This document shows positions 15,694-58,372 of a stretch of DNA of 64,000 nucleotides, one piece after another. Every line of letters begins with the position of its first letter. Positions within the stretch are counted from its first letter, which is position 1. Made by a program: the position numbers and the translations under genes. The stretch lies in the NCBI GenBank assembly GCA_049322675.1, contig JBMORM010000014.1, positions 15,896 through 79,895 of the forward strand, in the 5' to 3' direction. The stretch is from Patescibacteria group bacterium (GTDB taxonomy: Bacteria > Patescibacteriota > JAHJAL01). Below the pieces are notes generated by a model. It was not told the DNA's origin and searched no databases. It saw nothing but the letters and a program-made list of their open reading frames with translations.

Positions 15694-16896
15694 ATGGCAG
15701 ACACAAAATTTGATCGTTCCAAGCCTCATCTCAACATTGGTACAATTGGTCACGTCGATCACGGTAAAACCACATTGACCGCCGCTATCACTTTAGTTTT
15801 AGACAAACACCAAGCTGAAGGTTACGGTTCTCGTCCCGAAAAATATGACCAAATCGACAACGCCCCCGAAGAAAAAGAACGTGGTATCACTATTGCCACG
15901 CATCATTCCGAATATTGGACTCCAAAAAGACACTATGCCCACGTTGATTGTCCTGGTCATGCTGACTACATTAAAAACATGATTACCGGCGCCGCTCAAA
16001 TGGACGGAGCTATCTTGGTTGTTTCCGCCGCCGACGGTCCGATGCCTCAAACTCGCGAACATATTTTGTTAGCTAGCCAAGTCAATGTTCCGCATATCGT
16101 TGTTTTCTTAAACAAAGTTGACATGGTGGACGATCCAGAATTGATCGACTTGGTTGAAGTTGAAATTCGTGAATTATTAACCAAATACGGATTCCCAGGC
16201 GATACTGTTCCGATTATTCGCGGTTCTGCTTTGAAGGCCATGGAAAATTCCGGCGATCCAGAAATTTCCAAACCAATTTTTGATCTCATCAACACTATTG
16301 ACGAATTTATTCCGGAACCACAACGTCAAGTTGATAAACCATTCCTGATGCCTATCGAAGATATTTTTACCATCGAGGGTCGCGGTACTGTTGTTACTGG
16401 TCGTATTGATCGAGGTATTGTCAAGATAAACGAAGAAATCGAAATAATTGGTATTTCAGATACTCAAAAAACTGTCGTTACTGGTATCGAAATGTTCAAC
16501 AAATCTCTTGACGAAGGTCGTGCTGGTGACAACGCAGGTATCTTGCTTAGAGGCATCAAAAAAGAAGACGTTGCTCGCGGACAAGTATTGGCCAAACCTG
16601 GCAGTATTTTACCGCATAGTGAATTCGAAGCTGAGACTTATATCCTAACCAAAGAAGAAGGCGGACGACATACTCCATTCTTCAAAGGGTATAAACCGCA
16701 ATTCTATATTCGAACCACTGACGTTACTGGCGAAGTATTCCTACCGGAAGGTTCCGAAATGATTATGCCTGGTGATACTGTCAATATCAAAGTCAAATTG
16801 ATTGCCCCAATCGCCCTCGAAGAAGGATCCAAATTTGCTATCCGTGAAGGTGGCAAAACCGTCGGTGCCGGAGTTGTTACCAAAATTATCGCTTAA
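15694..16896 (+). CDS. tuf: elongation factor Tu
   Basis: [22 protein letters not shown]; 400 aa; strong SD. Confidence 0.97.
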
Positions 16897-31396: not shown

Positions 31397-31499
31397 CCCT
31401 CACGGGACCGAACTGCTGCTGGCAATGACCAATTTTCAAACAAATTCAATTCTAGGATCATTCTTTTTTGTATTTGTTTGGAAATTGAGCCTTTTTTGG
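31397..31499 (-). repeat. dispersed intergenic element, copy 1 (short form), with conserved ends shared with 62839-63142
   Basis: 31397-31426 CCCTCACGGGACCGAACTGCTGCTGGCAAT is the exact reverse complement of 63113-63142; 31478-31499 TTGGAAATTGAGCCTTTTTTGG is the exact reverse complement of 62839-62860; flanked by heptad arrays at 31352-31392 and 31500-31560. Confidence 0.6.
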
Positions 31500-31564
31500 A
31501 AATTGAGAATTGGAAATTGGAAATTATCAATTCATTCTTAATTATTAATTGTTAATTAATTATT

Positions 31565-32146: not shown

Positions 32147-32175
32147 GACAATTTCCAGTTTCCAATTTCCAGTTT

Positions 32176-32197
32176 CCAAAAAATGTCCAATTTCCAA
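32176..32197 (+). repeat. partial third copy of the left-end motif of the dispersed element (CCAAAAAATGTCCAATTTCCAA)
   Basis: Differs from CCAAAAAAGGCTCAATTTCCAA at three positions; embedded in the heptad arrays between adkA and map. Confidence 0.4.
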
Positions 32198-32308
32198 TTC
32201 TCAATGGATGCGATCCGTTTGGAAATTGTGTCTTGGAAATTCATTGGAAATTATACCGTTGTTTACAAAAATGAATATATTTTTTTGTTCCCAATTTACA
32301 TTATTCCA

Positions 32309-33591: not shown

Positions 33592-33600
33592 CTTTTTAAA

Positions 33601-33689
33601 TTTCCAATTTCCAATAATCAATTTCCAATAAATTTTCCATTGTCCCAACAAAATATCATTTGGAAATTGAAAATTGAAAATTGAAAATT
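33601..33689. repeat. inverted pair of heptad arrays (AATTTCC x3 ... GGAAATT/GAAAATT x4) flanking a 27-nt spacer between rpmJ and rpsM
   Basis: 33601-33634 AAATTTCCAATTTCCAATAATCAATTTCCAATAA; 33662-33689 GGAAATTGAAAATTGAAAATTGAAAATT. Confidence 0.65.
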
Positions 33690-34093: not shown

Positions 34094-34099
34094 TATAAA

Positions 34100-34198
34100 A
34101 TTTCCAATTTCCAGTTTTCAATTTCCAAATCTATAACCAAATTATCCGTATATCCCCTCAAAGTATGTTTGAAAATTGTGAATTGAAAATTGGAAATT
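34100..34198. repeat. inverted pair of heptad arrays flanking a 41-nt spacer between rpsM and rpsK
   Basis: 34100-34128 AATTTCCAATTTCCAGTTTTCAATTTCC; 34170-34198 GAAAATTGTGAATTGAAAATTGGAAATT. Confidence 0.65.
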
Positions 34199-34231
34199 AC
34201 TCATTATTATTTTTTTAATTATTCCTCACCC

Positions 34232-44634: not shown

Positions 44635-46638
44635 ATGCCCCAATTCAACCTCAAATTTCCCTACCAACCAACCGGTGACCAGCCCCAGGCCATAGAAAAG
44701 TTATTAGCTGGTTTAAAAAAACAAGAAAAATTTCAAACTTTAAAAGGCGTGACCGGATCCGGCAAAACTTTTACCATGGCCAACATCATCCAATCGGTCC
44801 AAAAACCAACCCTCGTTTTGGCTCACAACAAAACTTTGGCCGCCCAACTTGCCCAGGAATTTAAAGAATTTTTTCCTGACAACGCTGTTCATTATTTTGT
44901 CAGTTATTACGATTACTACCAACCGGAAGCTTACATGCCCGCCTCTGACACCTATATTGAAAAAGACAGCTCCATCAACGAAGAAATCGATAAATTACGC
45001 CATGCTGCTACCGCCAGCCTTCTTCTGCGTGATGACGTGATTATTGTTGCTTCTGTCTCCTGCATCTATGGTATTGGTAATCCGGAAACCTACAAAGAAA
45101 CCGGTATCAAGATTAAAACCAACCAAAAAATCAATCGTCGCCAATTTTTAGAAAATCTTATCGATATTCAATATCAACGCAACGACATCGATTATCATCG
45201 CGGCACTTTCCGTCTGCGTGGTGATGTTTTAGAAGTTTGGCCGCCTTATGAAGACAATGGATTCATGATTGATTTTTTCGGCGACAATATTGACGGCATT
45301 CGCCAAGTTGACTCTCTAACGGGCGAAGTTCTGCAAACCCTGAATCGTTTAATTATTTTCCCCGCCAAACATTTTGTCACTACCAAATCTGAAGTCAAAG
45401 AAATTATTGAAATAATCAAAAAAGATCTCATCACCGAACATGCTGAATTAATAAAAAATGGCAAAGAATTGGAAGCGGCTCGTCTCAAACAACGCGTTAG
45501 CTTTGATTTGGAAATGATCGCCGAGACTGGTTATTGCTCAGGTATCGAAAACTACAGTCGATATTTTGATCGCCGTCAGGCCGGTCAACCGCCCCACGTT
45601 CTCCTGGATTTCTTCCCCAAAAATTATCTGATGTTCATCGACGAATCACACATTACCGTTCCGCAAATCGGCGGCATGTTTGCAGGTGACAAGGCTCGCA
45701 AGGACATGTTGGTAAATTATGGTTTTAGACTCAAAGCATCATACGACAATCGTCCCCTAAATTTTCCTGAATTTGAGACCAAAATCAATCAAGTTATTTT
45801 TACCACCGCCACTCCGGGTAATTACGAAAAAGAACATTCGTCAAAAATCATCGAACAAATTATCCGCCCCACCGGATTGATTGATCCCCAAATTGAAGTC
45901 CGGCCCGCCCAGGGTCAAATCGACGATCTGATTGCCGAAATCCGTGCCACCGTCAAGAAAAAACAGCGAGTTTTAGTTACGACTCTCACCAAACGATTGG
46001 CTGAGGAATTGACCGAATATTTGCAAGAAATAAAAATCAAAGTCCAATATCTTCATAGCGATGTTGATACGGTTGAACGTATTGAAATTCTAAGAGATCT
46101 GCGTTTGGGGGTTTATGACGTTTTGGTTGGCATTAATCTTTTGCGCGAAGGCTTGGATCTGCCGGAAGTTACATTGGTTGCTATTTTGGACGCGGATCAA
46201 GAAGGGTTTTTACGATCAGAAACTGCTTTGATTCAAACCATTGGTCGTGCCGCCCGACACGTTGACGGCAGAGTAATCATGTATGCCGACAAAATCACCC
46301 GCTCCATGCAAGCGGCTCTGGATGAGACTATTCGTCGTCGCCAGATTCAAACAGCTTACAATCAAAAAAATAACATCACCCCGCAAACCATCATCAGTCG
46401 CATCAAAGATCTGGGCTTTGAGTCCAAAAAAACCAAAGACAAGAAAAAAACCAGATCAGGCCGGATGGATTGGGACAAAATTGCCGAATATTCTCCCGAC
46501 GCCATCGATCGCCTGATATCAGACAAAGAAAAACAGATGGACTTGGCTGCCAAAAACCTCGAATTTGAACTTGCCGCCGAACTTAGAGATCAAATCGAAG
46601 AGCTAGTCGTTCTCAAAAAGACCAAAAACAATAAATAA
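44635..46638 (+). CDS. uvrB: excinuclease ABC subunit B
   Basis: [15 protein letters not shown], helicase motifs, C-terminal UVR domain [13 protein letters not shown]. Confidence 0.96.
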
Positions 46639-46666
46639 TTTTAGTACTGTAATATTTTCCCAGCTC

Positions 46667-46704
46667 AAACGTTGCTATATCTAGAAATAAGCAACGTTTT
46701 TTTG
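46667..46704 (+). terminator. rho-independent terminator after uvrB
   Basis: AAACGTTGCT ... AGCAACGTTT then T7. Confidence 0.65.
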
Positions 46705-46778
46705 TTGGAGAAATCATTGACAAAATACAATATTATTGTACGCTTACTTAAACTTTTCTATTATTAAATAAACTCAAT

Positions 46779-48920
46779 ATGGATACTCTCGAAAAAAAAG
46801 ATTTATATCCCAATCTATCCGAAATAAAAGAAAACAATTCGGTTTATATTCCTGCTGGTCTATCGGAAATAAAAGAATATATCAAACAAAATATACCGAC
46901 TATCAAAACCGTACTGAATCAAAGTAATCCCCAAAACATCTTGCCGTTATTGGATGATAAAAATCCCGCTAGACACCAATCCGAAGATTATATTTTAGCT
47001 TTGGATGAAAAAATTAGTGAATATCACCAGAAACTACAGAAATCGGCTGAAATCAAATCCAACCAAGAAGTCATTATTGCCGAATACAACAAAAATACCG
47101 AAAATATCCTTCTCAATTTAAAACAAATCGCTGATCAAGAAAATGAACTCCTGGAAATGCTCATGCAAAAAATCAGCCACGATGAGCACGATCCAATTTA
47201 TTGTGAGATCAAAAAAGACGACTCTTTGGAAGCGGATGAATTCGAGCAAACATTGCAAAAACAAGCTGTTAGCCAATCTGACATTATACTTTCTATGTTT
47301 GGACAAATTAGTAAAGTTGTTCCGCCAGAAATTTTGAATCGCCTGGACATAACCAATATGACCAAAAAAGCAAAAAGATTGTTGGATAATCCCAAAAAAA
47401 TACTTTCCGAAATGAAAAAAAATGCCCTGCAAAAAAAGAAAAAAGGTTGCAGCAAGACCATGGATTTGCGTATTTCCATGATTGATATTCATGAAAAAAT
47501 AATTTCACATCTGCTTTTGCAATCAAAAGTCGAAAATTTGCCAACTGGAAACAATGCCCGACTTCAATATCTGATTCGTAAAAAAAACAAACAAAACAAA
47601 AATATTTACGACACGATTAAAAAATATATCCAAATCGGCTATCAATATTTTTCTTCTCTTAAAAATGATCAGGAAAATATTCCAGAAACGAGAAAAAAAT
47701 GTAAAACTTGCGTCACGAAAATTTGCACATATATTGACGACATCTTGCAGAATCAAACCAGTCTCAAAGACAATCAGGAAATTAACGAAATTATCGATTT
47801 GCTTAGTACTTTACATCAACAATCCGATCATGAAATAGACAAAGTAAATGACCTCCCCAAAACTCAGATCAAAGATGGCAAGAAAATAATTAAATATCGC
47901 AGCAAAGAAATATCCAAACTTGAAAGCCATATTCAAAGTATGATTTCCAGCCGTGAGCAGTCTTTGCAAGATCTGGCCGAGAGCAACAGCAATCAACTTC
48001 ATCAAATATCTTTACATAACGATCAAGTCTTTCAAAACATTCTTTCCGATCTGGATTCTTTATCTGATTTTTTAAAAGAAAAAGATTCTGCTTTGATAAA
48101 TTCTCTTGTTTTTCCCAAATTCTTTTCCGAATCAACAGTCTCAGAGAAAAATTCTTCCGCCCAATTTTTCCTCAATGGACACAACAAACACAAGCTGATA
48201 TACCCAATCGATAAAGGATTTGCCTCTCGAATAGAAATTATCGAAAAATATTGCTTCCAGACCTTAAAAATCCTGGCGCACAATTTAAGATATTTAGTTT
48301 TTCTCCAATATAAACAAAAATTTACCTATCCCAAACCAGAAATCAGAAATGAAATCAAGACACTTACTGACTTCCAGAAACAGTTATTTGATGATTATAT
48401 CTCTCTGATGGATTATGTCAATCAGGAAATAGAATCATATAATTTAAAACACCAAAAAAATATTCCCGTGTCCAATCCTCACGGATTATTGGCCGAATTA
48501 TTATGGTCAACCTCGCATATGGCCAACAGCTACTTTCTGACAAAACAACAAAACAATCCAATTTTCATCGCTCGTCCGACATCAGAACTTGACGACAATG
48601 AAGCCAAAGATTTTGAATTTCACTTTCCAAAAACCAATCAAAATTTTCATCTCCAACTCACTACCATTAAGAAAACCTGCGACAATGACAAATATTACGA
48701 AAAAGAGTCAAAAACATATCGCCACAACGTTCCCTTGCTCACAATTCCGTCCTGGCAAAGGCAATGGGAAAAAATCAAAAATGGCGATTATTTGAATCAT
48801 GATTTTCTAAAATATAATCTAACCAAGCCCTTGCACGAACAACAGCTGGAAAATCCTCTTACCCCGCCAAGTATCAAACAGGACATTTTGTACTTTGTAG
48901 AACTATTGGATAATCAATAA
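46779..48920 (+). CDS. large hypothetical protein (713 aa), K/N/Q/E-rich, no TM segment
   Basis: Long ORF with low-complexity segments and no recognised domain motif. Confidence 0.5.
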   Translation: MDTLEKKDLYPNLSEIKENNSVYIPAGLSEIKEYIKQNIPTIKTVLNQSNPQNILPLLDDKNPARHQSEDYILALDEKISEYHQKLQKSAEIKSNQEVIIAEYNKNTENILLNLKQIADQENELLEMLMQKISHDEHDPIYCEIKKDDSLEADEFEQTLQKQAVSQSDIILSMFGQISKVVPPEILNRLDITNMTKKAKRLLDNPKKILSEMKKNALQKKKKGCSKTMDLRISMIDIHEKIISHLLLQSKVENLPTGNNARLQYLIRKKNKQNKNIYDTIKKYIQIGYQYFSSLKNDQENIPETRKKCKTCVTKICTYIDDILQNQTSLKDNQEINEIIDLLSTLHQQSDHEIDKVNDLPKTQIKDGKKIIKYRSKEISKLESHIQSMISSREQSLQDLAESNSNQLHQISLHNDQVFQNILSDLDSLSDFLKEKDSALINSLVFPKFFSESTVSEKNSSAQFFLNGHNKHKLIYPIDKGFASRIEIIEKYCFQTLKILAHNLRYLVFLQYKQKFTYPKPEIRNEIKTLTDFQKQLFDDYISLMDYVNQEIESYNLKHQKNIPVSNPHGLLAELLWSTSHMANSYFLTKQQNNPIFIARPTSELDDNEAKDFEFHFPKTNQNFHLQLTTIKKTCDNDKYYEKESKTYRHNVPLLTIPSWQRQWEKIKNGDYLNHDFLKYNLTKPLHEQQLENPLTPPSIKQDILYFVELLDNQ

Positions 48921-48998
48921 TTTTTACAAAAATATTTTGTTTAATCCGTTTTTCCGTTTATAATACAATATAGTTGTCAATAATCATTAACAAGCAAC

Positions 48999-49322
48999 AT
49001 GTCCAAAAAAAAGAAAAAACTCAAATCTCATATTTTCCATGCCACCCACCAAGCCAAACACCAAGCAGCTACGGGCAATACAGATGGTCGTGGTTCCGAA
49101 GCCAACACCAGCGCCAATGTCACCTATTTTTCCGCCGCTCCCGAAGACAAATCCCACAAATACGATCGCCAATTCGGACATGTTTTACCTGATCTGAAAT
49201 TTTTTGGCGTCATGGTGGTTATGATGGCTATTGTTTTAGGAGTTATCTATTATTTTGACCAAACGGGAAATCTGATCATCAAAGTTGGCGACCAAGTTTA
49301 CAAAATACTAAATCTTAGCTAA
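48999..49322 (+). CDS. small protein with a basic N-terminus and a single C-terminal TM helix
   Basis: MSKKKKKLKSH...; TM helix FFGVMVVMMAIVLGVIYYF. Confidence 0.4.
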   Translation: MSKKKKKLKSHIFHATHQAKHQAATGNTDGRGSEANTSANVTYFSAAPEDKSHKYDRQFGHVLPDLKFFGVMVVMMAIVLGVIYYFDQTGNLIIKVGDQVYKILNLS

Positions 49323-49340
49323 TTGCTTTCAATCAGACAA

Positions 49341-49377
49341 ATAAACCCCGATACAAAATCGGGGTTTATTTTTTTTA
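49341..49377 (+). terminator. rho-independent terminator
   Basis: AAACCCCGAT-ACAAA-ATCGGGGTTT then ATTTTTTTT. Confidence 0.7.
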
Positions 49378-49399
49378 AAAAACCATACCAACTATTTTC

Positions 49400-49747
49400 T
49401 TAAAAAAATAATTTCCCGATCAAGTAGGAACTCAAGTTACAAATTACAGATAATATTACAGCCGTTTTCCAATTTACCGGTAAACTAAACTTAATAATCA
49501 CAATTTCCACCAAGGTAACAAATATCTCCCCGCTCAAAATCATATATTTCCCGGCAAACACCGTCGGCCAGACAAACCACAAATAGGGCAGGGTCGCGAA
49601 TGAAGCCAAAAAACCCGTGAAAATAATTTTATTCCAAGCGATATCCCAATTATTCTTTTTGGTCCATTTTAAAACAATTACCATTGCAATAGTTTCAATC
49701 ACAATCGTCAAAATCAAAGCTACAAAAAACAATCCATAAAAATCCAT
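49400..49747 (-). CDS. small integral membrane protein (3-4 TM), unknown function
   Basis: 115 aa, mostly hydrophobic. Confidence 0.45.
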   Translation of the reverse strand: MDFYGLFFVALILTIVIETIAMVIVLKWTKKNNWDIAWNKIIFTGFLASFATLPYLWFVWPTVFAGKYMILSGEIFVTLVEIVIIKFSLPVNWKTAVILSVICNLSSYLIGKLFF

Positions 49748-49814
49748 AAAGACGACTCCCCAAAATCTCCATCAAATATTCCCCTATATCCGAATATCCC
49801 AACAAAATATCGTT

Positions 49815-49857
49815 TGGAAATTGGAAATTGAGAATTGGAAATTGAAAATTAAAAATT
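49815..49857 (+). repeat. heptad array (GGAAATT GGAAATT GAGAATT GGAAATT GAAAATT AAAAATT) between two minus-strand genes
   Basis: Six consecutive 7-bp units read directly from the sequence. Confidence 0.7.
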
Positions 49858-49859
49858 TA

Positions 49860-51233
49860 CTATCGTATTCCCGCCCCATTCTCCACTTTCTTTTCCGGAT
49901 TTAGCAAAATCGCTTTTCCCGCATCATCTACGCACAACATCATTCCCTTTGATTTGATTCCCCGCAGTTCTTTTTCCTCCAGATTAGCCAAAACCGGAAT
50001 TTGCCTACCCAGCAATTCCTCTGGTTTGTAATATTCTTTTATTCCGGCTACAATTGTATTTTCTCCCCTGGCGCCAAAATCCAAGGTCAATTTGTACAAT
50101 TTGTCCGCTCCCGCCACTTCATCTACCGCTTTAATTTCTGCGATTCTGACGTCGATTTTGAGCCAATCCTCAAAAGATATCTCCGGCTTTTCTTTTAATT
50201 CAGTACTTTTCATTGGCAATACCAGTCCGACATTTTTCTTTGCTTTTTCTAAAGTTATACCAGCAGTTGCTTTTGCCTTGGCAGCTCCCTTGGCCATAAG
50301 TAACCCGACATAATCTTTATTCTTCTCCAATTCCCGATATTTTTCTTGGATGGGTTTCAAAAAATCAATAATCAACTCCGCCAGATCATTTTTAAAATCA
50401 CCATACCCCTTACCCTGATATTTTTTTTCAATCACCTTCTCTCCTGTTCCTGTAATACATTGATAAATAGTCAATAAATTGTATAAACCTTTTCTTTCTT
50501 TATCAAAAACAATGTCCTGACCGGAATCAGTTACCGCCTTTGCAATCTTTTGCCTAATATCTTCCGGATTATCCAAAAGCCAAATATAATCATATTTGCT
50601 CTTGGCGGACTTATCCATTTTCTTTTCTGGATTATCTAAAGCCATAACCCTCGCTCCCTGAGGAGGGATAAAAGCCTGGGGTTCCTTGAAAATCTCTCCA
50701 TAAGTTCGATTGAATTTTCTAGCAATCTCCCTGGTGATTTCCACGTGTTGAGTTTGATCATCTCCCACCGGTACCAAATCCGTTTGATAAAGCAAAATAT
50801 CCGCCGCCATCAAAACCGGATAATCAAACAACCCTACCGATACGTTTTCCTGTGACAATTTGGCGGATTTTTCTTTGTATTGAATCATCTGCGTCATCCA
50901 GGAAAAAGGAGTTACGCAATTTAATAACCAGCACAATTCAGTATGCTCCGGAATATGTGACTGAATAAAAATATTTGATTTCTCCGGATCAATCCCGCAA
51001 GCCAAATACAGCATAAACATTTCCATACTTTTTTCTCGTACCAATTTCGGATCTTTGGGAGTGGTCAAGGCGTGCAAATCAGCAATAAAAAACCAATTTT
51101 CATTCGGGCCTTCATTTTGTTGTTTAACCCATTCCCGAATAGCCCCAATATAATTTCCAATAGTCAAATTTCCGGAAGGAGCAATACCTGATAACACTCT
51201 TTTTTTCATGGTAAACCTCTGATGAATAATCAA
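49860..51233 (-). CDS. trpS: tryptophan--tRNA ligase fused to a C-terminal EMAP/Trbp111-type tRNA-binding (OB-fold) domain
   Basis: Class-I motifs SGIAPSGNLTIGNYIGA (HIGH-like) and KMDKS (KMSKS); C-terminal ~110 aa FEDWLKIDVRIAEIKAVDEVAGADKLYKLTLDFGARGENTIVAGIKEYYKPEELLGRQIPVLANLEEKELRGIKSKGMML resembles the MetRS/CsaA tRNA-binding domain; likely start MKKRV at 51209. Confidence 0.88.
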   Translation of the reverse strand: MIIHQRFTMKKRVLSGIAPSGNLTIGNYIGAIREWVKQQNEGPNENWFFIADLHALTTPKDPKLVREKSMEMFMLYLACGIDPEKSNIFIQSHIPEHTELCWLLNCVTPFSWMTQMIQYKEKSAKLSQENVSVGLFDYPVLMAADILLYQTDLVPVGDDQTQHVEITREIARKFNRTYGEIFKEPQAFIPPQGARVMALDNPEKKMDKSAKSKYDYIWLLDNPEDIRQKIAKAVTDSGQDIVFDKERKGLYNLLTIYQCITGTGEKVIEKKYQGKGYGDFKNDLAELIIDFLKPIQEKYRELEKNKDYVGLLMAKGAAKAKATAGITLEKAKKNVGLVLPMKSTELKEKPEISFEDWLKIDVRIAEIKAVDEVAGADKLYKLTLDFGARGENTIVAGIKEYYKPEELLGRQIPVLANLEEKELRGIKSKGMMLCVDDAGKAILLNPEKKVENGAGIR

Positions 51234-51311
51234 TAAACTCTAATAATATTATATCCCATCTTTTCCTAAAAACAGGATTTTTGCTAACATTAAAATATCT
51301 AATAAAAACAT

Positions 51312-51899
51312 ATGTTCAAAAATCGTTTTTTTCTTATCGTCCTTTTCTCCATTCTAGTCGTGACGTCATTTCAATTGTATCGCTTCAATCAGGCTTCGCG
51401 GTTAAAATCGATTGCCTCCACCAATACCCAGCTCAATCTTAATGTATTAGTCGGCTCCCTTTCTCAAACTGTTTCTTCGGACATTGGCGGCGGCAACGAA
51501 GTCAAATTGAGCCCGGTTGACATAACTACCGCTCCTGCGACTGGAGTTGATACCACCGGAGATTTCAATACCACCGTTCGTGACCACCGGGGGCTTGCCA
51601 TCGGTTGGAGTCAAACAGTAACTTGTAGTGATTTTGTCAGCGGCACTGATGTTATTCCTGTGTCCAGCCTTTCGATTGCTCCTACTACCCTCACTCCGAT
51701 TGGCGTATCTGATCCCACCGGCGTTCACCTGGGTCCAACCCACAATTTTGCCAATACTTCGGATGCGGCCACGATCATCTACGCCGCTGCCGGTCGCGGC
51801 CAAGGTCGCTTCGATATTTACAATATTTTAACTCTTCACGTTGACAAAAACACGCCCGTTGGACTTTATGTTTCCACTATGACCGTCACAATCAGTTAA
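51312..51899 (+). CDS. secreted Thr/Gly/Val-rich protein with N-terminal signal/anchor; possibly a surface fibre or pilin-like subunit
   Basis: MFKNRFFLIVLFSILVVTSFQLY hydrophobic N-terminus; locally higher GC; no enzymatic motif. Confidence 0.5.
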   Translation: MFKNRFFLIVLFSILVVTSFQLYRFNQASRLKSIASTNTQLNLNVLVGSLSQTVSSDIGGGNEVKLSPVDITTAPATGVDTTGDFNTTVRDHRGLAIGWSQTVTCSDFVSGTDVIPVSSLSIAPTTLTPIGVSDPTGVHLGPTHNFANTSDAATIIYAAAGRGQGRFDIYNILTLHVDKNTPVGLYVSTMTVTIS

Positions 51900-51900
51900 A

Positions 51901-52767
51901 TCAGACTCTCAAAATCAACAATGAACCAAATTTCTCATTCCCTTCCTCCACCCCAAACCAGGGGTGGCATTCATTGATACTCACTTTGGCTCCATAATCA
52001 AGACTCCGATTTTCCACGACCAAAAATTCATCCCCTTCCGCATTTTTTGATGAAGTCCAAAAGCTGTTATTTTCGTCGTTCAAAACGCAATTTTTTAAAC
52101 CCGATCCTATCGACAATGATTTTAGAAACAAAATTTCCGATAGATTGGCATTTGTTTTTATTTTCAAATCAATAACCTCAATATCTGCCGTCATTTTTTC
52201 CAAATCCTGATTCTTGACTATCTCCCTATATTTCTCCAAAAAGCCCAATATTTCTTCTTTAGCAAAAAAATTTTTCTGTAAATTTTTCAATTTTCTAAAT
52301 TCGATCAATTTTAACCTGATCTGGTCCAGATAATTGTTATCCATCTCAGACCTAAAAATTGCATTTTTTACCAAAATCCACCCCGCATTTATTTTTTCCT
52401 GGCGTATATTGCTCTTATTACAAGATTGCCAAAAACAATTGCTTTCCTTTATCAGATCATTTTTTTGGCTATTTTTGAATCTTCTCAATATCTCATAAAC
52501 CTCCAGTCTATTTCCGTCTTCATCTTGGTCAATCATTAAAAACAACAAATAATCTTGTCTTTTAAATTCCACCAGATCCTTTCGACTGATGGAAAGTTTT
52601 GGAATTTTGATTTTATTGGTATCTATTCCTAAATTTAATCTGATCGAATCCGGACCAAAAAATCTATTCTCAAAAATCATTCTGGCATCCTTGATTGAAC
52701 ATTCGTCGGGATTACGAGGTAACCAATCAATATTTAATTCTTCTATACTCATAAAAATATTGCCCAA
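51901..52767 (-). CDS. hypothetical protein (288 aa)
   Basis: ORF only; convergent with the previous gene across a 1-bp gap. Confidence 0.45.
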   Translation of the reverse strand: MGNIFMSIEELNIDWLPRNPDECSIKDARMIFENRFFGPDSIRLNLGIDTNKIKIPKLSISRKDLVEFKRQDYLLFLMIDQDEDGNRLEVYEILRRFKNSQKNDLIKESNCFWQSCNKSNIRQEKINAGWILVKNAIFRSEMDNNYLDQIRLKLIEFRKLKNLQKNFFAKEEILGFLEKYREIVKNQDLEKMTADIEVIDLKIKTNANLSEILFLKSLSIGSGLKNCVLNDENNSFWTSSKNAEGDEFLVVENRSLDYGAKVSINECHPWFGVEEGNEKFGSLLILRV

Positions 52768-52898
52768 TTATTAAATATTATCTAGTATTAATAATACAGC
52801 ATTGAAAATCCATACCATATAAAACCTTGACATATACATTAAAAAATGTTAATAATAACATATTGTCACTTTAGATACTTTAAACTAATCAAATCAAT

Positions 52899-53648
52899 AT
52901 GAAACTGGAAAATAATCAAAATTTAGTTTTTGAACCGACAAATAAATCTATCATTGGAAAAAACAATCAACAAACATACTTTGAAAAACTAAAAAAATTC
53001 GTTCAAGAAGGTACGAAAGGAATCAAAGATTTTTCCCAAGAAGCTGCCAAATTACCAAATTATCTAATCAAACAGAAAGCAAAAGAACAAAAAAGGAGAG
53101 AGGCAAAAGCCAAGGCCAAACCCGCAATTCCTGTTGCGCAAAACGACTGCAAAAAGATTTCGAAATTACCTCAAAAAATATGTACTATCGCCGGTCTGTC
53201 CGGGATATTGCTTCTAAATTATATCCGTCCATCCGAGATCGAAGGCAAATCCATCGATAAAATCTCCTTATCAAATGTTCGCGTCTCCGTCCATCAAAGA
53301 CATGAATATCACAAGTCTGACCTCGAAAATATCGCCCTCCGAGACGATTCGATTGATCTGGCAGAAGTGGTTGTCAAAGTTCGACTAAATAGTAGTGAAG
53401 CCAACCAACACCGTCGTAAACCGTCCATCAAGGAAAATGTCGATTATAAATCACTGATTCTAAATCCAAAAAGCGCTGAAGAAGTCTGGAAAAAAATTAA
53501 AAATCTTAAAAACAATAACGGGGAACAGCCAAAAATTTATCTCAATAAAAAAATCAGCTCATACTGTGATGGAGTAATATGCAAAGATGGCAATCCGCCA
53601 ACTCCATATTTTAGTTACGCCGTTGACAAAACTATGCTCGGCCAATAA
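52899..53648 (+). CDS. hypothetical protein (249 aa) with a Lys-rich segment and one hydrophobic helix
   Basis: KAKEQKRREAKAKAKP; ICTIAGLSGILLLNYI; ends with TAA at 53646-53648, after which the frame stays open into the next ORF. Confidence 0.45.
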   Translation: MKLENNQNLVFEPTNKSIIGKNNQQTYFEKLKKFVQEGTKGIKDFSQEAAKLPNYLIKQKAKEQKRREAKAKAKPAIPVAQNDCKKISKLPQKICTIAGLSGILLLNYIRPSEIEGKSIDKISLSNVRVSVHQRHEYHKSDLENIALRDDSIDLAEVVVKVRLNSSEANQHRRKPSIKENVDYKSLILNPKSAEEVWKKIKNLKNNNGEQPKIYLNKKISSYCDGVICKDGNPPTPYFSYAVDKTMLGQ

Positions 53649-53726
53649 TTTATCGTTGAATACACCAACAAAAAAACCGGAAAAAAAGCCTATATCGGCT
53701 TTGGCAAAGGCAGTGACACCGGTGGT

Positions 53727-53975
53727 TTGATCAGTAAAAATGATTCTGATCCAGATATGAGATTTCTTGACGTCTTCGGACCAGATCGAAATGCCTCATT
53801 TGATATTGGCGTTCAAGGAGAAAAAGAATGGCAAATTACATTGGTAATCGAAATTCCACCCGGAATACCAGGAGTATCAGACGATCAAACTGTTCAAGAA
53901 ATAAAACAAGCAAAAAAATCTCTCCAACCTTCGATTACCAAGCAAGTCAATGAAGCCGCACCGGAATCACTTTGA
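53727..53975 (+). CDS. hypothetical protein (82 aa), in-frame continuation of the previous ORF
   Basis: Same frame as 52899..53648; the 78 nt between them contain no stop. Confidence 0.35.
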   Translation: MISKNDSDPDMRFLDVFGPDRNASFDIGVQGEKEWQITLVIEIPPGIPGVSDDQTVQEIKQAKKSLQPSITKQVNEAAPESL

Positions 53976-54000
53976 TAACAAAATTCAATATTCTTAAGTT

Positions 54001-54039
54001 AAAAAACACCCCCGCTCATTTTGAGTGGGGGTGTTTTTC
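54001..54039. terminator. bidirectional rho-independent terminator
   Basis: A5, ACACCCCCGCTC-ATTTT-GAGTGGGGGTGT, T5; serves the convergent genes ending at 53975(+) and 54053(-). Confidence 0.8.
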
Positions 54040-54052
54040 GTACTCATCAAAG

Positions 54053-54790
54053 TTAATTACTCCTGATCAAACTATCTTTAATTGCTACTTGAGCCGTATC
54101 ACAAGGATTATCTAATAAATATTTTTCAACGATTTCCGATGAATCAATTTTTTCTATCAATCCTTTTATTAATTTAAAAAAAATTACATCCTCTGCCTTA
54201 TCTAGTTGGGTCAAAAAAGGAATTCTCTCCATATAATCAAAGTATTCGTCGATTTCGCTTTGAGAAAAACCCTGCGCTCGAAAATAACTGCAAAACAAAT
54301 TATTGATTGAAATATATCTATGTAAGATATCATTTAATTTCTCTTTTTTTCCCGGATTGTCGCCGTACAATTGATTGATTTGTTCTTTAAAAGACCAAGT
54401 TTTTTCATCGGAAAAAAAGAAACCAAAAAATTTTTGGAATAAAACACGTTCAGTCGAATTGAAAAGAGAAGATTTCTTTTTGATCTTATGATTAAATTTT
54501 GTTTCTTGGTATAGCTGAATAAAATCAAGCAATTTATAGGTAAAATCCAATTTTTGTTTTTTCTCAAGTATCTCTCTGATTTTTTGCTTGCTGACAGCAA
54601 AAAAATCCGGTCCAAAATCAGTTGAGTCAAAATCTCTTTTTAAAATTGTAGCATCAGTTACTCCAAAGGCATTTTGAAAAATATTCACAAAAATCGCGTG
54701 GTCAGTTGTGTCTTGTTGCTCCTTGTTTTTTTCTATGCGACTCTCCCTAAGGATTTGGGAAAAATCACCGCTTAAACTAGATATTGACAT
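54053..54790 (-). CDS. hypothetical protein (245 aa)
   Basis: ORF only. Confidence 0.45.
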   Translation of the reverse strand: MSISSLSGDFSQILRESRIEKNKEQQDTTDHAIFVNIFQNAFGVTDATILKRDFDSTDFGPDFFAVSKQKIREILEKKQKLDFTYKLLDFIQLYQETKFNHKIKKKSSLFNSTERVLFQKFFGFFFSDEKTWSFKEQINQLYGDNPGKKEKLNDILHRYISINNLFCSYFRAQGFSQSEIDEYFDYMERIPFLTQLDKAEDVIFFKLIKGLIEKIDSSEIVEKYLLDNPCDTAQVAIKDSLIRSN

Positions 54791-54928
54791 AGTATAATAA
54801 TTAATTGGTTCTATAGTATGTTTTGATAGATAATACTATTTATACCAGAAATGTCAATATTCGTATCAAAAAAGTATTGACCGATTGATTATATTAATCA
54901 ACAATGCTCCTGTATTTAAAATATTTTT

Positions 54929-55297
54929 ATGAACGAAAAAATCACTCCAATCTGGAAAAACCACCCTGAAAGACAATCTTCAATTGAAAACAAACTGATA
55001 GACAAAACAAATAATTCTGAAACATCCGAAAAAAAACCTGAAAAAGAAATATTTCATTTTTACTTTTCATTATCAGAAGAAAACCATATCATTGACTACG
55101 AAAAAATTGAACAAGAAATTGTCAATCACGATAATTTTTCCGGTCATAAATTGATATTTTTTAAGGTTAACCCATATCAGGCATTTCCGAACTACAAAGC
55201 AGTAATTTCTTATACCAATCGTTTCCGTAAAAAAGTTGGAGTATATGAAATAGTAGTTGGGCACAACAATAATTGGAAATATTTATCTAAACAGTAA
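54929..55297 (+). CDS. hypothetical protein (122 aa)
   Basis: ORF only. Confidence 0.4.
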   Translation: MNEKITPIWKNHPERQSSIENKLIDKTNNSETSEKKPEKEIFHFYFSLSEENHIIDYEKIEQEIVNHDNFSGHKLIFFKVNPYQAFPNYKAVISYTNRFRKKVGVYEIVVGHNNNWKYLSKQ

Positions 55298-55372
55298 TTT
55301 GAGGTCAAAAAATATTGAAAAAAATAAAAACAAATGTTACAATAAACAGATTTATAATAAAAAAACAAAAAA

Positions 55373-56809
55373 ATGCCCCTATCTATAGAAGAGAAAAAAA
55401 ACACCGATAACACTTCCCGGCCAGAAACCGGAAGTATGTCATATAATCTATATGGGGAAGAAAAGGATATTTCAGGAGCAATAGATAATAATCCAATCGA
55501 TTTTTTTCAATATTATAAAAGCATATTTGAGATAGAAACCGGGCAAACATTTGATGACCAATTATGGCTGAAAAAAACCAAAGAAATAAAATACGCGTAT
55601 AATTTAATCCAAAAAAATATAAATTTAGATGTTAAACAATCGGAAATTAATAACCTCTTTCTCAAGACAGCAGGCGAAATAAAGGAAATTTTTCATCTGG
55701 AAACATACGACCGCAACCAAAATATTCCATTGGGTGTTTCTGAAATAATGAATAGATTTGATCGGTTAAAAATACCTGAAAAATCTCACCTTTTGTATTG
55801 TCGAGATTTTATGAAAGATATATTCTCTGCCTCCAATATTATTGTAGATAAATATGGAAGCAATCATCCCTTTCGTCGAGCTACTAGATCAATCATTAAC
55901 CACTGCTTGCCCGATATCAAATACATTGATCCAGCAACTGGTCTGGATATTAGTTTGGACAATTATTTTGACGAAAGAAATAGAATTGATTCGGGTTTGG
56001 CCCGTTCTAATCCAAATTTTTTAAAATCAATACTAGAAGGAGATCCAAAACTGATAAATAATCCCGAATATTCCAAATATCTTAATGCTCTTGCCAACAT
56101 CTTGAAAAAAATTAACCAGTCCTATGACATAGGTTATATTCAGACATTAACTGTTGAATTTTCCCAATCGCATCACAACGAATTGACCACCAAAGAACCG
56201 GAAAAAAGGCATGAAATGAAAGAAAATGAATTAGGTAAAATTGATGAGATTATGAATTATCTTTGTTCTAGTCATGATTTAAAAGAATTTACCCTCGCCA
56301 ACAAGGAAAAACTGAATGGTATTATTCATATGATAAATCAGAAACACAGTATTATCGGTCCTAGTGACAAAATTTTCAGTCCAATATCAACGACATTCAA
56401 TAAAGACAACCCGTTGATAAGTAAGGAAATAATTGAAAAGATCATTGGTGAAATTAGTTTTTCTGAATTAAATCAAAAAGTTGGTGAATTTCAAGGGGTA
56501 ATCAAATCATTTGTTTCCGAACTTGATCCAAATTCTGACCTCAAATTTATTGATTTGCCGGCAAAGAATCCAAATGAAAAAGCAGAAATTGTTTCTGAAC
56601 TTGCTCAATTGCAAAAAAACATCGATCAAGAATTTTCTCAAGATGATATAACCGCAAAAAAAGTAAAATATATTTTACTTTATGATTATATTTTGCTTAA
56701 ATTTACCGATTCTTTGAACAAGTCTTCTGAATTTAATCAAGAACAAACCATTCAACCTGAAGAAATTTTTTCACACGAAACTGTTGATTCGGAAAAACTA
56801 GCCGCCTAA
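55373..56809 (+). CDS. hypothetical protein (478 aa)
   Basis: ORF only; 4-nt overlap with the convergent gene 56806..57720. Confidence 0.5.
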   Translation: MPLSIEEKKNTDNTSRPETGSMSYNLYGEEKDISGAIDNNPIDFFQYYKSIFEIETGQTFDDQLWLKKTKEIKYAYNLIQKNINLDVKQSEINNLFLKTAGEIKEIFHLETYDRNQNIPLGVSEIMNRFDRLKIPEKSHLLYCRDFMKDIFSASNIIVDKYGSNHPFRRATRSIINHCLPDIKYIDPATGLDISLDNYFDERNRIDSGLARSNPNFLKSILEGDPKLINNPEYSKYLNALANILKKINQSYDIGYIQTLTVEFSQSHHNELTTKEPEKRHEMKENELGKIDEIMNYLCSSHDLKEFTLANKEKLNGIIHMINQKHSIIGPSDKIFSPISTTFNKDNPLISKEIIEKIIGEISFSELNQKVGEFQGVIKSFVSELDPNSDLKFIDLPAKNPNEKAEIVSELAQLQKNIDQEFSQDDITAKKVKYILLYDYILLKFTDSLNKSSEFNQEQTIQPEEIFSHETVDSEKLAA

Positions 56810-57720
56810 TCAATCGTTTCCACCATCTCCCGCCACTTCTCCGCATATTCTCCTCTCTTTCCCTCCGGATGGAATTTCAAAATATTTTTTGAAGCCATGG
56901 CTCCGTCGATATTGTCGACTGGGGTCTTTTTTTTGATCTTTTTCAGTTGTGATTTTTCCAGAAACATTTCTACCAAATCACCAAGCCAACCGGACAATAT
57001 TATTTCCCCCAACTTACCCCACCAATTTGGCTTATCAGTGTTCAATAGAGGATTGATCATCTTGGTATTGGGAATAAATTTTTCCACCCATTTATTTTTC
57101 CGCCAGAAATTCTCCGCCACTTTCATATCGGTCCCATAAATCGGCCGAAGCCATTTGAGCCAGTACATTAGATAAATATCATTTTCGTCTATCAACAGTT
57201 TTCGAAAATTTATGTAATTTTCGGTAACGTAAAAACTCAGACAAAACCGGTTGGCGACGTTTTTGCCGTGCCGCCATTTTCCCAAAAGAAACATCCAGCC
57301 AGTCAAAATAACCCGTGTAGTAAACAAGCGGTTCTTTTTGGTTATCACCAGCAAATCAATATCCCCATTTTCTTTGGCGTTACTAAACCCCAATGTATTA
57401 CTCACTCCCACCAGCTTAATAAACGGCACGAGCCGAAAAACCCAGCGATATTTCTCCACCATCCGCCATTTGTGGTAGGAAAATAAATATCTCTTTTTTC
57501 TTATATTAAACAGCTCTCCCCGCCCTGCCAGACAATAAAAACCATCGGCAAAATCTATTTTATTTTCTTCGCGCAAAACATCAATTGTTTTCAAACAATC
57601 ATTTAAATCGCATTTAACCCCCCACAAATTGTCAAAAATTTCCATATTGGTCAGCGGAAATTCAAACAAATCATAGAAAGCCAAGGTGGCGAGGATGGAG
57701 TTTTTGATGGGGGTTATCAA
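56806..57720 (-). CDS. hypothetical protein with a possible minimal nucleotidyltransferase-like signature
   Basis: LVGVSNTLGFSNAKENGDIDLLVI fits hG[GS]x9-13 Dh[DE]h loosely; TTG start at 57720, alternative Met 25 codons downstream. Confidence 0.4.
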   Translation of the reverse strand: MITPIKNSILATLAFYDLFEFPLTNMEIFDNLWGVKCDLNDCLKTIDVLREENKIDFADGFYCLAGRGELFNIRKKRYLFSYHKWRMVEKYRWVFRLVPFIKLVGVSNTLGFSNAKENGDIDLLVITKKNRLFTTRVILTGWMFLLGKWRHGKNVANRFCLSFYVTENYINFRKLLIDENDIYLMYWLKWLRPIYGTDMKVAENFWRKNKWVEKFIPNTKMINPLLNTDKPNWWGKLGEIILSGWLGDLVEMFLEKSQLKKIKKKTPVDNIDGAMASKNILKFHPEGKRGEYAEKWREMVETID

Positions 57721-57726
57721 GTTTAA

Positions 57727-57790
57727 AAGTTATCAAGTTATAAAGTGAGAACGTTTTAACGTATAAACGTATGAACGTTCATGCATTTAT
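57727..57790. repeat. left arm of an imperfect inverted repeat bracketing the four-helix-bundle gene
   Basis: AAGTTATCAAGTTATAAAGTG (57727-57747), then GAGAACGTTTTAACGTATAAACGTATGAACGTTCATGC; pairs with 58275-58359. Confidence 0.6.
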
Positions 57791-57802
57791 ACGTTTATAC
57801 TT

Positions 57803-58174
57803 TTATATATTCTTTCTTAAAACCTTAATAAGACATGCGATCATTGAAGAAATTTTCTCGCACTTATCTTTGATTATTACAAAATCATTAGTTTTAATAT
57901 ATAACAATTTGTTGGCAAGATATAATTGTGTTTTAAGCTCCGAGCATGAACCCTTCGATATGTACAAAAATCTTACAAACTCTTTCTTGGTCCCTCTTTC
58001 AAAACCTTCTGCAATATTACTTGGGATAGATACTGCTGCTCTTTGCATTTGTTGTATTAGTCCATAATCATTTCTAAATAAATACTTATTATTAGTTTGT
58101 TGATAAATCACTTCAACCAAAATCATACTTTCTTGCCATACTTTTATCTCTTCTACTTTTTTAAAAAAATTCAT
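57803..58174 (-). CDS. four-helix-bundle protein of the '23S rRNA intervening sequence protein' family (TIGR02436/PF05635-like)
   Basis: QMQRAAVSIPSNIAEGFERGTKKEFVRFLYISKGSCSELKTQLYLANKL matches the family signature A.SI.SNIAEG..R....E...FL.IA.GS..E; 123 aa. Confidence 0.8.
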   Translation of the reverse strand: MNFFKKVEEIKVWQESMILVEVIYQQTNNKYLFRNDYGLIQQMQRAAVSIPSNIAEGFERGTKKEFVRFLYISKGSCSELKTQLYLANKLLYIKTNDFVIIKDKCEKISSMIACLIKVLRKNI

Positions 58175-58274
58175 ATTATATTCTATTTACATTCTTGCTT
58201 TTATGCCCTTTACAAATTCAAACTAAATAATATCATTTGTTTATTAAAAAAAAATTAAGTAAAATTGAATCTAG

Positions 58275-58359
58275 GAGCGTATAGACGTGCAAACGTAAGA
58301 AAGTAAAAACGTTCCCACGTTCATACTTTCCCACTTTCCCTCCTTATAACTTTATAACT
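58275..58359. repeat. right arm of the inverted repeat bracketing the four-helix-bundle gene
   Basis: 58343-58359 CTTATAACTTTATAACT is the reverse complement of AGTTATAAAGTTATAAG (left arm AGTTATCAAGTTATAAAG); inner GGGAACGTTTTTAC/GTATGAACGT mirror the left-arm segments. Confidence 0.6.
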
Positions 58360-58372
58360 ATATAATTACTTC

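Follow-up and report, generated by a model that had tools for sequence, protein, structure and literature searches.

We report a computational analysis of a 64,000-nucleotide stretch (positions 15,896 to 79,895) of the 79.9-kb contig JBMORM010000014.1 from a Patescibacteria metagenome-assembled genome (MAG); this whole stretch is hereafter called the window. The subject is a gene island at positions 51312 to 57720, with trpS at one flank and a NAD-dependent sugar epimerase gene at the other, where a first-pass annotation of the window had located it. We think it probable that the island is a composite, recombination-prone variable region in a conserved gene frame, holding a putative envelope pair, a predicted nucleotidyltransferase (NTase), and four clade-restricted genes without assignable families (ORFans). 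Gene structure, distribution, selection, and mosaic pattern are reported here together with the fold and the operon partner of the NTase, and biochemical roles are proposed from them.

Eight open reading frames (ORFs) lie at exactly the coordinates and on the strands that the first-pass annotation had listed. It had counted them as seven genes, a number that is correct once ORF3 and ORF4 are merged into one. The features of the island are as follows.

51312..51899, plus strand: ORF1 (195 aa), with an N-terminal hydrophobic anchor or signal, a beta-rich body rich in G, T, V, and S, and a weak WxL-like match
51901..52767, minus strand: ORF2 (288 aa; 283 aa with a start at 52752 in the NCBI annotation), a predicted cytoplasmic ORFan between ORF1 and ORF3/4
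52899..53975, plus strand: ORF3/4, one 358-codon gene comprising ORF3 (52899-53648) and ORF4 (53727-53975) in the same frame
53646..53648, plus strand: the in-frame TAA nonsense codon that splits ORF3/4, a single stop also present in the Logan assembly L094
~54001..54039, no strand: a bidirectional intrinsic terminator hairpin between convergent ORF3/4 and ORF5, with A-run and T-run flanks in the sequence
54053..54790, minus strand: ORF5 (245 aa), a predicted cytoplasmic clade-restricted ORFan
54929..55297, plus strand: ORF6 (122 aa), a small predicted cytoplasmic ORFan, first gene of the hyperdivergent ORF6-ORF7 block
55373..56809, plus strand: ORF7 (478 aa), a predicted helical cytoplasmic ORFan
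56806..57720, minus strand: ORF8 (304 aa), with an N-terminal winged helix (residues ~1-65), a linker helix, a Polβ-type NTase core, and a C-terminal helical domain

All products (GenBank MFZ5392179-MFZ5392186, locus tags ACOZAR_03190-03225) are annotated as "hypothetical protein." The tight packing described earlier is real: convergent ORF1 (ending at 51899) and ORF2 (ending at 51901) are separated by 1 bp, and convergent ORF7 (ending at 56809) and ORF8 (ending at 56806) overlap by 4 nt. The proposed bidirectional terminator likewise folded into a stable hairpin on both strands (free energy, -28.7 and -28.9 kcal/mol; z = -7.8 and -8.3; equaled by 0 of 200 shuffles), and a simple terminator consensus scan did not list it. 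Gene orientations alternate, and the island holds at least five separate transcription units. The locally elevated GC content claimed for ORF1 was recovered (0.478; the island as a whole has 0.346 and the window has 0.38); ORF2 and ORF5-ORF7 range from 0.29 to 0.33. tRNA and Rfam scans of the window gave 0 matches. Upstream, the window carries rpoB/rpoC-sized ORFs and a series of short ORFs that fit a ribosomal-protein operon.

Syntenic loci were fetched through exact-protein look-ups and ORF8 homologues. L001 and L008 are the ENA and GenBank copies of one 21.6-kb contig, L088 is a Logan assembly, L002 is GCA_016294905.1, and L003 is a JGI contig; L004, L005, and L010 were also retrieved, as were L006 and L007. 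ORF3 and ORF4 share one frame interrupted by a single TAA, and their orthologues are intact in relatives (358 aa in L001, 355 aa in L002, 334 aa in L004); therefore, the island has seven genes, one of them interrupted. Similarity between the 358-aa protein of L001 and the window runs through the TAA without a break. Logan assembly L094 (run SRR32167788) matches the window at 100% over 11,154 nt, TAA included.

Scans of all island ORFs and their orthologues against Pfam, NCBIfam, PADLOC, and PHROGs gave no match at threshold, and no island ORF matched PADLOC with an E value better than 0.03. The earlier description of the genes as ORFans is apt for ORF2, ORF5, ORF6, and ORF7, four genes that match no family, so the island does not resolve into housekeeping families. 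It fails for ORF8, which belongs to a Patescibacteria-wide family, and ORF1 and ORF3/4 have weak family matches.

Conserved frame and divergent blocks

The frame uvrB ... trpS/ORF1/ORF3/4/variable genes/ORF8/nucleotide-sugar genes is found in four related lineages (the window, L001/L088, L002, and L004). The first-pass annotation was thus right to call this an accessory island, in the sense of a strain-variable stretch within a conserved frame, and its suggested test of co-conservation gave a split answer: the frame is conserved in all four lineages, but the island genes are not co-conserved as one set. Amino acid identity to L001 is high at the flanks (uvrB, 98%; trpS, 95%; epimerase, 97.5%) and graded within the island (ORF1, 94%; ORF8, 89%; ORF2, 88%; ORF5, 77%; ORF3, 73%), down to ORF7 at 30% (478 versus 661 aa), ORF6 at ~29%, and an ORF4 part that is barely detectable. 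L002 holds weak positional orthologues of ORF5, ORF6, and ORF7 (hhalign scores of 30, 23, and 43 versus shuffle means of 15, 12, and 16). The L004 lineage has a 434-aa and a 175-aa gene at the ORF5-ORF7 position; they were considered as remote homologues of ORF5, ORF6, or ORF7 and rejected, all scores being at shuffle level.

At the DNA level, identity between the window and L001 has a background of 0.90 to 0.95 broken by sharply bounded dips.

53434..54160, no strand: divergent block A, covering the ORF3/4 C-terminal domain, the terminator, and the ORF5 3' end (identity, 0.46 to 0.68)
54760..56700, no strand: divergent block B, covering the ORF5-ORF6 spacer, ORF6, and nearly all of ORF7 (identity, 0.19 to 0.63; sharp edges)
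57657..58456 and 49635..50034, no strand: further dips, the former at a four-helix-bundle gene absent in L001, the latter small

Synonymous divergence (dS) from L001, calculated by the Nei-Gojobori method, is 0.2 to 0.5 in the flanking genes, ~1.5 to 1.6 in block A (1.5 in the C-terminal half of ORF5), and saturated in ORF6 and ORF7. Ratios of nonsynonymous to synonymous divergence (dN/dS) are 0.02 to 0.05 for uvrB and trpS, 0.09 for ORF8, 0.10 for ORF1, 0.14 for ORF2, and 0.15 for ORF5. These ratios are low in assignable and unassignable genes, and both kinds are therefore under purifying selection. As judged from the values of 0.09 to 0.15 for ORF1, ORF2, ORF5, and ORF8, the ORFs represent genuine genes, as opposed to open frames that arose by chance.

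This bears on the view that the unassignable ORFs are decaying or spurious sequence under relaxed selection, in keeping with the nonsense codon in ORF3/4, the low GC content of ORF2 and ORF5-ORF7 relative to the 0.38 of the window, and their lack of homologues outside the clade. ORF2 and ORF5, however, keep their low dN/dS at dS values of 0.45 to 0.74; the frames of ORF6 (120 to 122 aa) and ORF7 (447 to 661 aa) are intact in three lineages despite saturated divergence; and open frames of 245 to 478 codons would arise by chance very rarely at 30% GC. We regard decay as very unlikely. The possibility raised earlier that the ORFs are degraded therefore applies to one gene of the seven, broken by its nonsense codon, and not to the genes tested for selection. 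On the pattern of substitutions, the divergent blocks are best described as old alleles joined by recombination, the product of neither local decay nor local positive selection. Our best guess for ORF6, ORF7, and the C-terminal domain of ORF3/4 is that these deeply diverged alleles were exchanged by homologous recombination, as would suit a strain-variable accessory module under diversifying or frequency-dependent selection.

A differently placed pattern separates L088 from L001. The two are ~100% identical across uvrB-p107 and ORF6-epimerase and differ (80 to 97% identity) in one 5.4-kb tract (~8200 to 13600 of L001) that holds trpS, ORF1, ORF2, ORF3/4, and ORF5. Identity specific to an ORF6-ORF7 cassette was ruled out, since near-100% identity holds everywhere outside that tract. 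Either a recent second exchange took in a housekeeping gene here, or the tract stems from strain-chimeric assembly. Extended to the whole mosaic, the latter idea would have the assembler switching between coexisting strains; all compared sequences are MAG or metagenome contigs, and a single 5.4-kb difference in an otherwise ~100% identical pair is a pattern that chimeric assembly can yield. Yet a second assembler gave the window sequence base for base, the ORF8/ORF7 junction of the window allele recurs in the independent run L091, and the 661-aa ORF7 allele is common to L001 (ENA) and L008 (GenBank MAG). The divergent alleles must moreover exist in nature even if they were joined artificially, and we hold an assembly artifact to be quite unlikely as the source of the mosaic.

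ORF8 family and its Wzy_C partner

The possible minimal NTase signature noted in the last gene of the island proved real, on the evidence of an invariant D120-I-D122, the core fold of an AlphaFold2 model, and weak family matches. An alignment of 21 sequences (A1), including 20 homologues at 28 to 96% identity, all from Patescibacteria and none with a Pfam domain, has as further invariants R136, R150, C160, F163, Y183, N209, W211, E251, and H284. The AlphaFold2 model (predicted local distance difference test [pLDDT], 95.2; predicted template modeling [TM] score, 0.91) comprises a winged helix (three helices and a beta hairpin), a long linker helix, an alpha/beta NTase core, and a C-terminal helical domain. 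Its core has the alpha-beta-alpha-beta-alpha-beta order of Polβ NTases, with D-x-D on the second strand after a glycine turn. Foldseek searches of the PDB matched the core to AAD(9), AadA, ANT(4'), MntA, GlnE, and Hailong HalB (probability, 0.9 to 0.99) and the N-terminal domain to IclR- and MAGE-type winged helices. No PDB sequence was matched in a profile search with ORF8, and the window protein matched nothing in Pfam or NCBIfam at an E value of ≤1. Within the family, NTP_transf_2 was matched by 6 of the 21 sequences (best E value, 0.07), Polbeta by 4 (best E value, 0.0048), and LicD (PF04991) by 0 at an E value of ≤10. On the basis of the model, ORF8 is a Polβ-fold NTase with an intact D-x-D catalytic motif; neither Pfam nor NCBIfam has a profile for its family.

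The earlier listing of ORF8 among the ORFans does not hold, since at least 116 species genomes of Patescibacteria carry a relative. The breadth scan covered one genome per GTDB species and yielded 116 relatives, from which 80 loci were retained, including members of Magasanikbacteria, Peregrinibacteria, Gracilibacteria, Saccharibacteria, Parcubacteria, Uhrbacteria, Falkowbacteria, and Buchananbacteria. ORF calling, clustering, and Pfam assignment revealed a conserved block, NusA - YidC - PRC-barrel protein - ORF8 - Wzy_C - GroES - GroEL, in which Wzy_C belongs to the O-antigen ligase family (Pfam E value, 3e-18). Wzy_C lies near ORF8 in 53 of 72 informative loci; it occupies the +1 position in 47 of 78 loci and shares the strand of ORF8 in 52, where the gap has a median of 4.5 nt (≤100 nt in 41 of the 52) and several of the genes overlap by 4 nt. 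The spacing indicates that ORF8 and Wzy_C are normally translationally coupled across Patescibacteria. In L006, L007, and L011, ORF8 adjoins GroES/GroEL and the other island genes are absent. In the window's clade, ORF8 adjoins epimerases, UDP-glucose dehydrogenase, dTDP-sugar isomerase, glycosyltransferases, and a flippase.

Because of the family-level association with Wzy_C and the adjacency to sugar genes in the window's clade, we infer that ORF8 acts in surface-glycopolymer assembly. It may transfer a nucleotidyl or phospho-linked group to a surface glycopolymer or its carrier, ahead of ligation or polymerization by the Wzy_C-type partner. Full-text literature searches found no paper on the ORF8/Wzy_C pairing and none on WxL domains in bacteria of the Candidate Phyla Radiation (CPR). 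Méheust et al. 2019 (PMC6744442) described 106 CPR-enriched protein families, mostly poorly annotated and several of them tied to the envelope. The ORF8 family fits that picture, a comparison made at the level of the description.

The distribution of ORF8 also bears on the central proposal of the first-pass annotation, namely that all seven genes are one undescribed system (for defense, surface, or host interaction) working as a unit. The genes are closely packed around a common terminator, the closest relatives (L001, L088, and L094) keep the full set in synteny, and most products have no family match. Nevertheless, ORF8 is found at ~75 other loci that have none of the remaining island genes, and it has an operon partner of its own; ORF2 is missing in L002 and L004; and the genes between ORF3/4 and ORF8 in L004 are unrelated to those of the window. 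The alternating orientations and the at least five transcription units, the lack of PADLOC matches, and the nonsense codon in one gene also speak against a unit, so that a single system is most improbable and the proposal was not upheld.

Two further observations concern the family. Nine distant Patescibacteria loci (L014, L018, L024, L030, L042, L062, L076, L078, and L080) have a trpS homologue within 10 kb of an ORF8-family gene. The ORF8/Wzy_C/GroEL block also occurs in many GenBank MAG records titled "uncultured Gammaproteobacteria bacterium" (L021, L032-L034, L039, L043, and others; binchicken and SRP coassemblies), which are probably mislabeled.

ORF1, ORF3/4, the clade-restricted genes, and neighboring features

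ORF1 alone among the island products has a hydrophobic N-terminal segment (residues 1 to 25), which substantiates the secretion signal claimed for the first gene as an N-terminal anchor or signal segment. Its orthologues (94, 87, 65, and 45% identity) directly adjoin trpS in the four lineages, and no further family member was found among 241 million metagenome records. ORF1 matched Pfam WxL (PF13731) with 19.8 bits (E value, 8.7e-4), short of the gathering score of 25 bits; matches from ORF1 and three of four orthologues fall in the central part of the profile (best E value, 1.7e-5). No W-x-L motif occurs in the family, whose sole invariant Trp lies in G-W-S-Q-T, and the C-terminus of ORF1 (Y-V-S-T-M-T-V-T-I-S) has no Trp. 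Among the neighbors of ORF1, no Pfam matches to DUF916, DUF3324, or LPXTG partner genes were found. From these matches, ORF1 is probably WxL-like.

ORF3/4 consists of a Lys-rich N-terminal region, a short hydrophobic segment (residues ~93 to 110), and a C-terminal domain with a suggestive 3D signature of the YuiC/MltA-like form DTGG...(F/L)D(V/L/I)(F/Y). Searched against 177,635 PDB sequences, the full-length family profile had YuiC (4WJT) as its top match (E value, 0.06), with the whole domain aligned, including D-T-G-G-x-I and (F/L)-D-L-Y-F; hhalign gave a 50% probability for the same pair. Pfam 3D (PF06725; gathering score, 23.8 bits) was the top match for two of four C-terminal fragments and for several orthologues; E values were 0.065 for the window fragment, 0.0087 for the best fragment, and 0.078 for a further match, all subthreshold. 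D273 (in D-T-G-G) and D291 (in F/L-D-x-F/Y) are invariant in the four orthologues, and the first of the three signature Asp residues varies. The C-terminus of ORF3/4 is rather likely to be a 3D domain.

The domain matches and the ORF1 anchor together suggest that ORF1 and ORF3/4 are a cell wall-associated pair, in which the anchored or secreted, beta-rich, WxL-like ORF1 and the 3D-like ORF3/4 would bind or remodel peptidoglycan at the surface. If the C-terminal domain is needed, the nonsense codon would disable the pair in the window genome.

The remaining four products have no signal or transmembrane (TM) segments and no relatives among PHROGs or PDB sequences, and viral-contig scans of ORF2 and ORF7 found none. 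A word-index search of 5.8 billion proteins for ORF2 returned only itself and one 85%-identical protein, and none of Pfam, NCBIfam, PADLOC, PHROGs, PDB, or the viral contigs held a relative. L001 and L088 carry ORF2; in L002 and L004 it is missing, and ORF1 and ORF3/4 adjoin. By this distribution, ORF2 is a lineage-specific insertion in the window and its closest relatives. ORF5 and ORF6 gave no profile-family or PDB match. ORF5 is 77% identical to a 255-aa protein of L001 and weakly similar to a 255-aa protein of L002 (phmmer E value, 3e-4 in the local set; hhalign, 30.2 versus 14.9 ± 3.4 for shuffles). ORF6 is ~29% identical to a 120-aa protein of L001 (phmmer E value, 2e-8), and its match to a 115-aa protein of L002 (hhalign, 23 versus a shuffle mean of 12) is limited to the N-terminal 16 residues.

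ORF7 exists in two allele types that are ~30% identical, the window type and the 661-aa type of L001 and L088, and in a more distant 447-aa orthologue in L002 (hhalign, 43 versus 15.9 ± 2.5 for shuffles). All three share the motif I157-x-D159-x2-G162-x-N164-H165-x2-R168-R169 (alignment A5), whose D-x2-G-x-N-H-x2-R-R patch is a candidate functional site. An exhaustive HMMER search of 1.84 billion representatives found only ORF7 itself and the L001 allele (P0035), and a word-index search found only itself. The AlphaFold2 model (two-sequence multiple sequence alignment; pLDDT, 35) was unusable. The window-type allele was recovered at 98% in a second sample, L091, where it is joined to ORF8.

Our guess is that ORF2 and ORF5-ORF7 are strain-variable intracellular accessory genes and that ORF5-ORF6-ORF7, a trio retained in three lineages, may form a cytoplasmic, strain-variable accessory module. 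A stronger claim would make ORF6-ORF7, possibly with ORF5 and the C-terminal domain of ORF3/4, a polymorphic conflict module (toxin-immunity or antiphage) whose alleles are under balancing selection. The sharp blocks with saturated dS in a ~91% identity background, the order of a small gene followed by a large one, the two discrete allele types (the window type recurring at 98% elsewhere), the conserved N-terminal part and variable C-terminal domain of ORF3/4, and the one tight motif common to the ORF7 alleles all agree with it. Of the features of polymorphic toxin-immunity pairs, however, allelic divergence alone fits: ORF6-ORF7 have neither a signal for secretion nor a TM segment, no domain known from trafficking or from toxins, and no match in Pfam, PADLOC, PHROGs, or PDB. 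Two to three alleles are known, the ORF7 model could not be used, and the same pattern follows from recombination among AT-rich genes that are weakly constrained and drift fast. We consider a conflict module unlikely.

Searches for other kinds of element were negative. Neither PHROGs nor viral-contig scans gave a phage signal, and a mobile island or prophage was rejected, since no integrase or transposase, tRNA in the window, phage genes, or flanking direct repeats were found and the position is conserved in relatives. A diversity-generating retroelement was considered on account of an Avd-like gene next to the island and rejected because there was no template repeat/variable repeat pair (no direct repeat of >33 nt in 46000-64000) and no reverse transcriptase-like ORF in the window, the only Y-x-D-D matches being in p713 and the epimerase.

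That Avd-like gene lies just outside the island.

57803..58174, minus strand: a four-helix-bundle gene (23S rRNA intervening sequence [IVS] protein, Avd-like; PF05635, 2.2e-36; TIGR02436, 7e-35)

It is a window-specific insertion between ORF8 and the epimerase gene, absent from L001 and L088, and the intergenic region measures 652 nt in the window versus 131 nt in L001 and L088. The gene stands between 80-nt imperfect inverted repeats (57728-57807 and 58280-58359; 73% complementary), a bracket that resembles the IVS cassettes from which the family takes its name. Beyond the epimerase lie the paralogues p275 and p299 (59742-60569 and 60847-61746, both on the minus strand; phmmer E value, 1e-71; no Pfam match), which adjoin it. 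At the equivalent place, L002 (4826-8399) has three tandem copies related to them (tblastn), forming an uncharacterized family linked to the sugar locus. On the other side of the island, trpS (49860-51233, minus strand) has a C-terminal tRNA_bind domain (PF01588), and p713 (46779-48920, plus strand; 713 aa) has no family match. The occurrence of p713 is limited to the window and to the lineage of L001, L008, and L088 (93% identity; dN/dS, 0.10), with no copy in L002 or L004; the ORFan-rich stretch therefore reaches upstream of trpS, past the island.

Tandem heptamer arrays (GGAAATT/GAAAATT/GAGAATT; three to five repeats) occupy intergenic sites, often as inverted pairs 60 to 110 nt apart. Thirty-six matches to GGAAATTGGAAATTG were counted (≤2 mismatches), against 1.1 expected; the arrays lie at ~2433-2559, 23836-23864, 31357-31526, 32149-32202, 33598-33683, 34098-34199, 49816-49851, 62812-62865, 63102-63116, and 63750-63764. 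The arrays may be regulatory or terminator associated. A pair of 31-nt inverted repeats at 49813 and 62813 was considered as marking the island boundaries and rejected, as the repeats are copies of this genome-wide intergenic array.

Nature of the island and comparison with known systems

The composite reading given at the outset joins the conserved frame, the sharp blocks, the ORF8 family, and the envelope-pair assignments. Several points weigh against it or its parts. Both the WxL and the 3D assignment lie below the curated Pfam thresholds, and the YuiC/3D match disappears with a trimmed-domain profile. The hydrophobic segment of ORF3/4 fails a Kyte-Doolittle window of ≥1.6, and export of this product therefore remains putative. 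The PDB fold matches of ORF8 are at superfamily level (E values, 0.01 to 0.1, none better than 0.01). Its glycan role in the window depends on family-level association and sugar gene adjacency: no Wzy_C homologue was found within the window, and all loci whose ORF8 is ≥46% identical to that of the window have no Wzy_C neighbor. ORF6 and ORF7 are known in two to three alleles only. The comparison sequences are all metagenome assemblies, so some mosaic boundaries could be strain-chimeric.

With these points counted, the composite region is still the reading we favor. Of the functions that the first-pass annotation had envisaged, one at the surface or in the envelope could plausibly be filled by three of the seven genes (WxL-like ORF1, 3D-like ORF3/4, and glycan-linked ORF8), and defense received no PADLOC signal. 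A bolder proposal, to which we assign a small chance, would make ORF5-ORF6-ORF7 a new, clade-unique intracellular conflict or host-interaction module, with the ORF7 patch as its active site and ancient recombining alleles under balancing selection, and would separately, with neither part depending on the other, make the ORF8 family with Wzy_C an undescribed CPR-wide step in envelope-glycopolymer modification.

The ORF8-Wzy_C operon is the most useful lead from the region. The ORF8 family has no curated model, a very confident predicted structure, and relatives in at least 116 species genomes, and its usual setting with Wzy_C is a housekeeping block. Little is understood of CPR envelopes and their glycans, which are probable mediators of episymbiosis, and the ORF8-Wzy_C pair thus offers a concrete, testable entry point. 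The island also displays, at base-pair resolution, close CPR genomes that differ by swapped, sharply bounded blocks carrying very old alleles of species-restricted genes. Read alongside the signs of purifying selection, these differences suggest function and strain variability, as opposed to annotation noise, for at least some of the ORFans that are labeled "hypothetical" in CPR genomes. Setting aside the single-system view spares follow-up effort on it.

Among known systems, the core of ORF8 resembles Polβ NTases (AAD(9), AadA, ANT(4'), MntA, and the adenylyl-transfer domain of GlnE) in fold, in D-x-D, and in the order of an NTase followed by a helical domain. It differs from them in TM scores of 0.2 to 0.5, in an additional N-terminal winged helix, and in a glycine motif that reads G-V/I-S/A-N-T where G-S is usual. 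Unlike MntA and the aminoglycoside NTases, the ORF8 family has the membrane protein Wzy_C as its operon partner, and neither a HEPN toxin nor a resistance context. A second comparison is with LicD/fukutin-type phosphotransferases, enzymes of the NTase fold that modify teichoic acids and glycans in concert with O-antigen ligase-like enzymes such as TacL. The logic proposed for ORF8, an NTase-fold enzyme encoded among glycan assembly genes and acting on a surface glycopolymer, is like theirs as a functional analogy only, and the ORF8 family differs in having no LicD Pfam match.

Like the WxL surface proteins of Enterococcus and Lactobacillus, ORF1 is beta-rich in composition and begins with a segment for export or anchoring. 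It differs in reading W-S-Q instead of W-x-L, in having no second, C-terminal W-x-L, and in the restriction of its family to four related Patescibacteria lineages; within that family, the local motif D-H-R-G-x-A-x-G-W-S-Q-T is invariant. Compared with the 3D-domain protein YuiC of Bacillus subtilis, ORF3/4 has a Lys-rich N-terminal part and a hydrophobic segment without YuiC counterparts, the first signature Asp is not kept, and the window copy is cut by a stop inside the domain.

As a whole, the island invites comparison with the strain-variable "flexible" regions of bacterial chromosomes, such as capsule and O-antigen loci, in which conserved flanks enclose genes reshuffled by homologous recombination. 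It resembles them in its conserved flanks, in sharply bounded blocks with saturated synonymous divergence, in the presence or absence of single genes, and in its adjacency to glycan genes. It differs from them in that its variable genes, ORFans whose products are predicted to be cytoplasmic, bear no signatures of glycosyltransferases or transporters.

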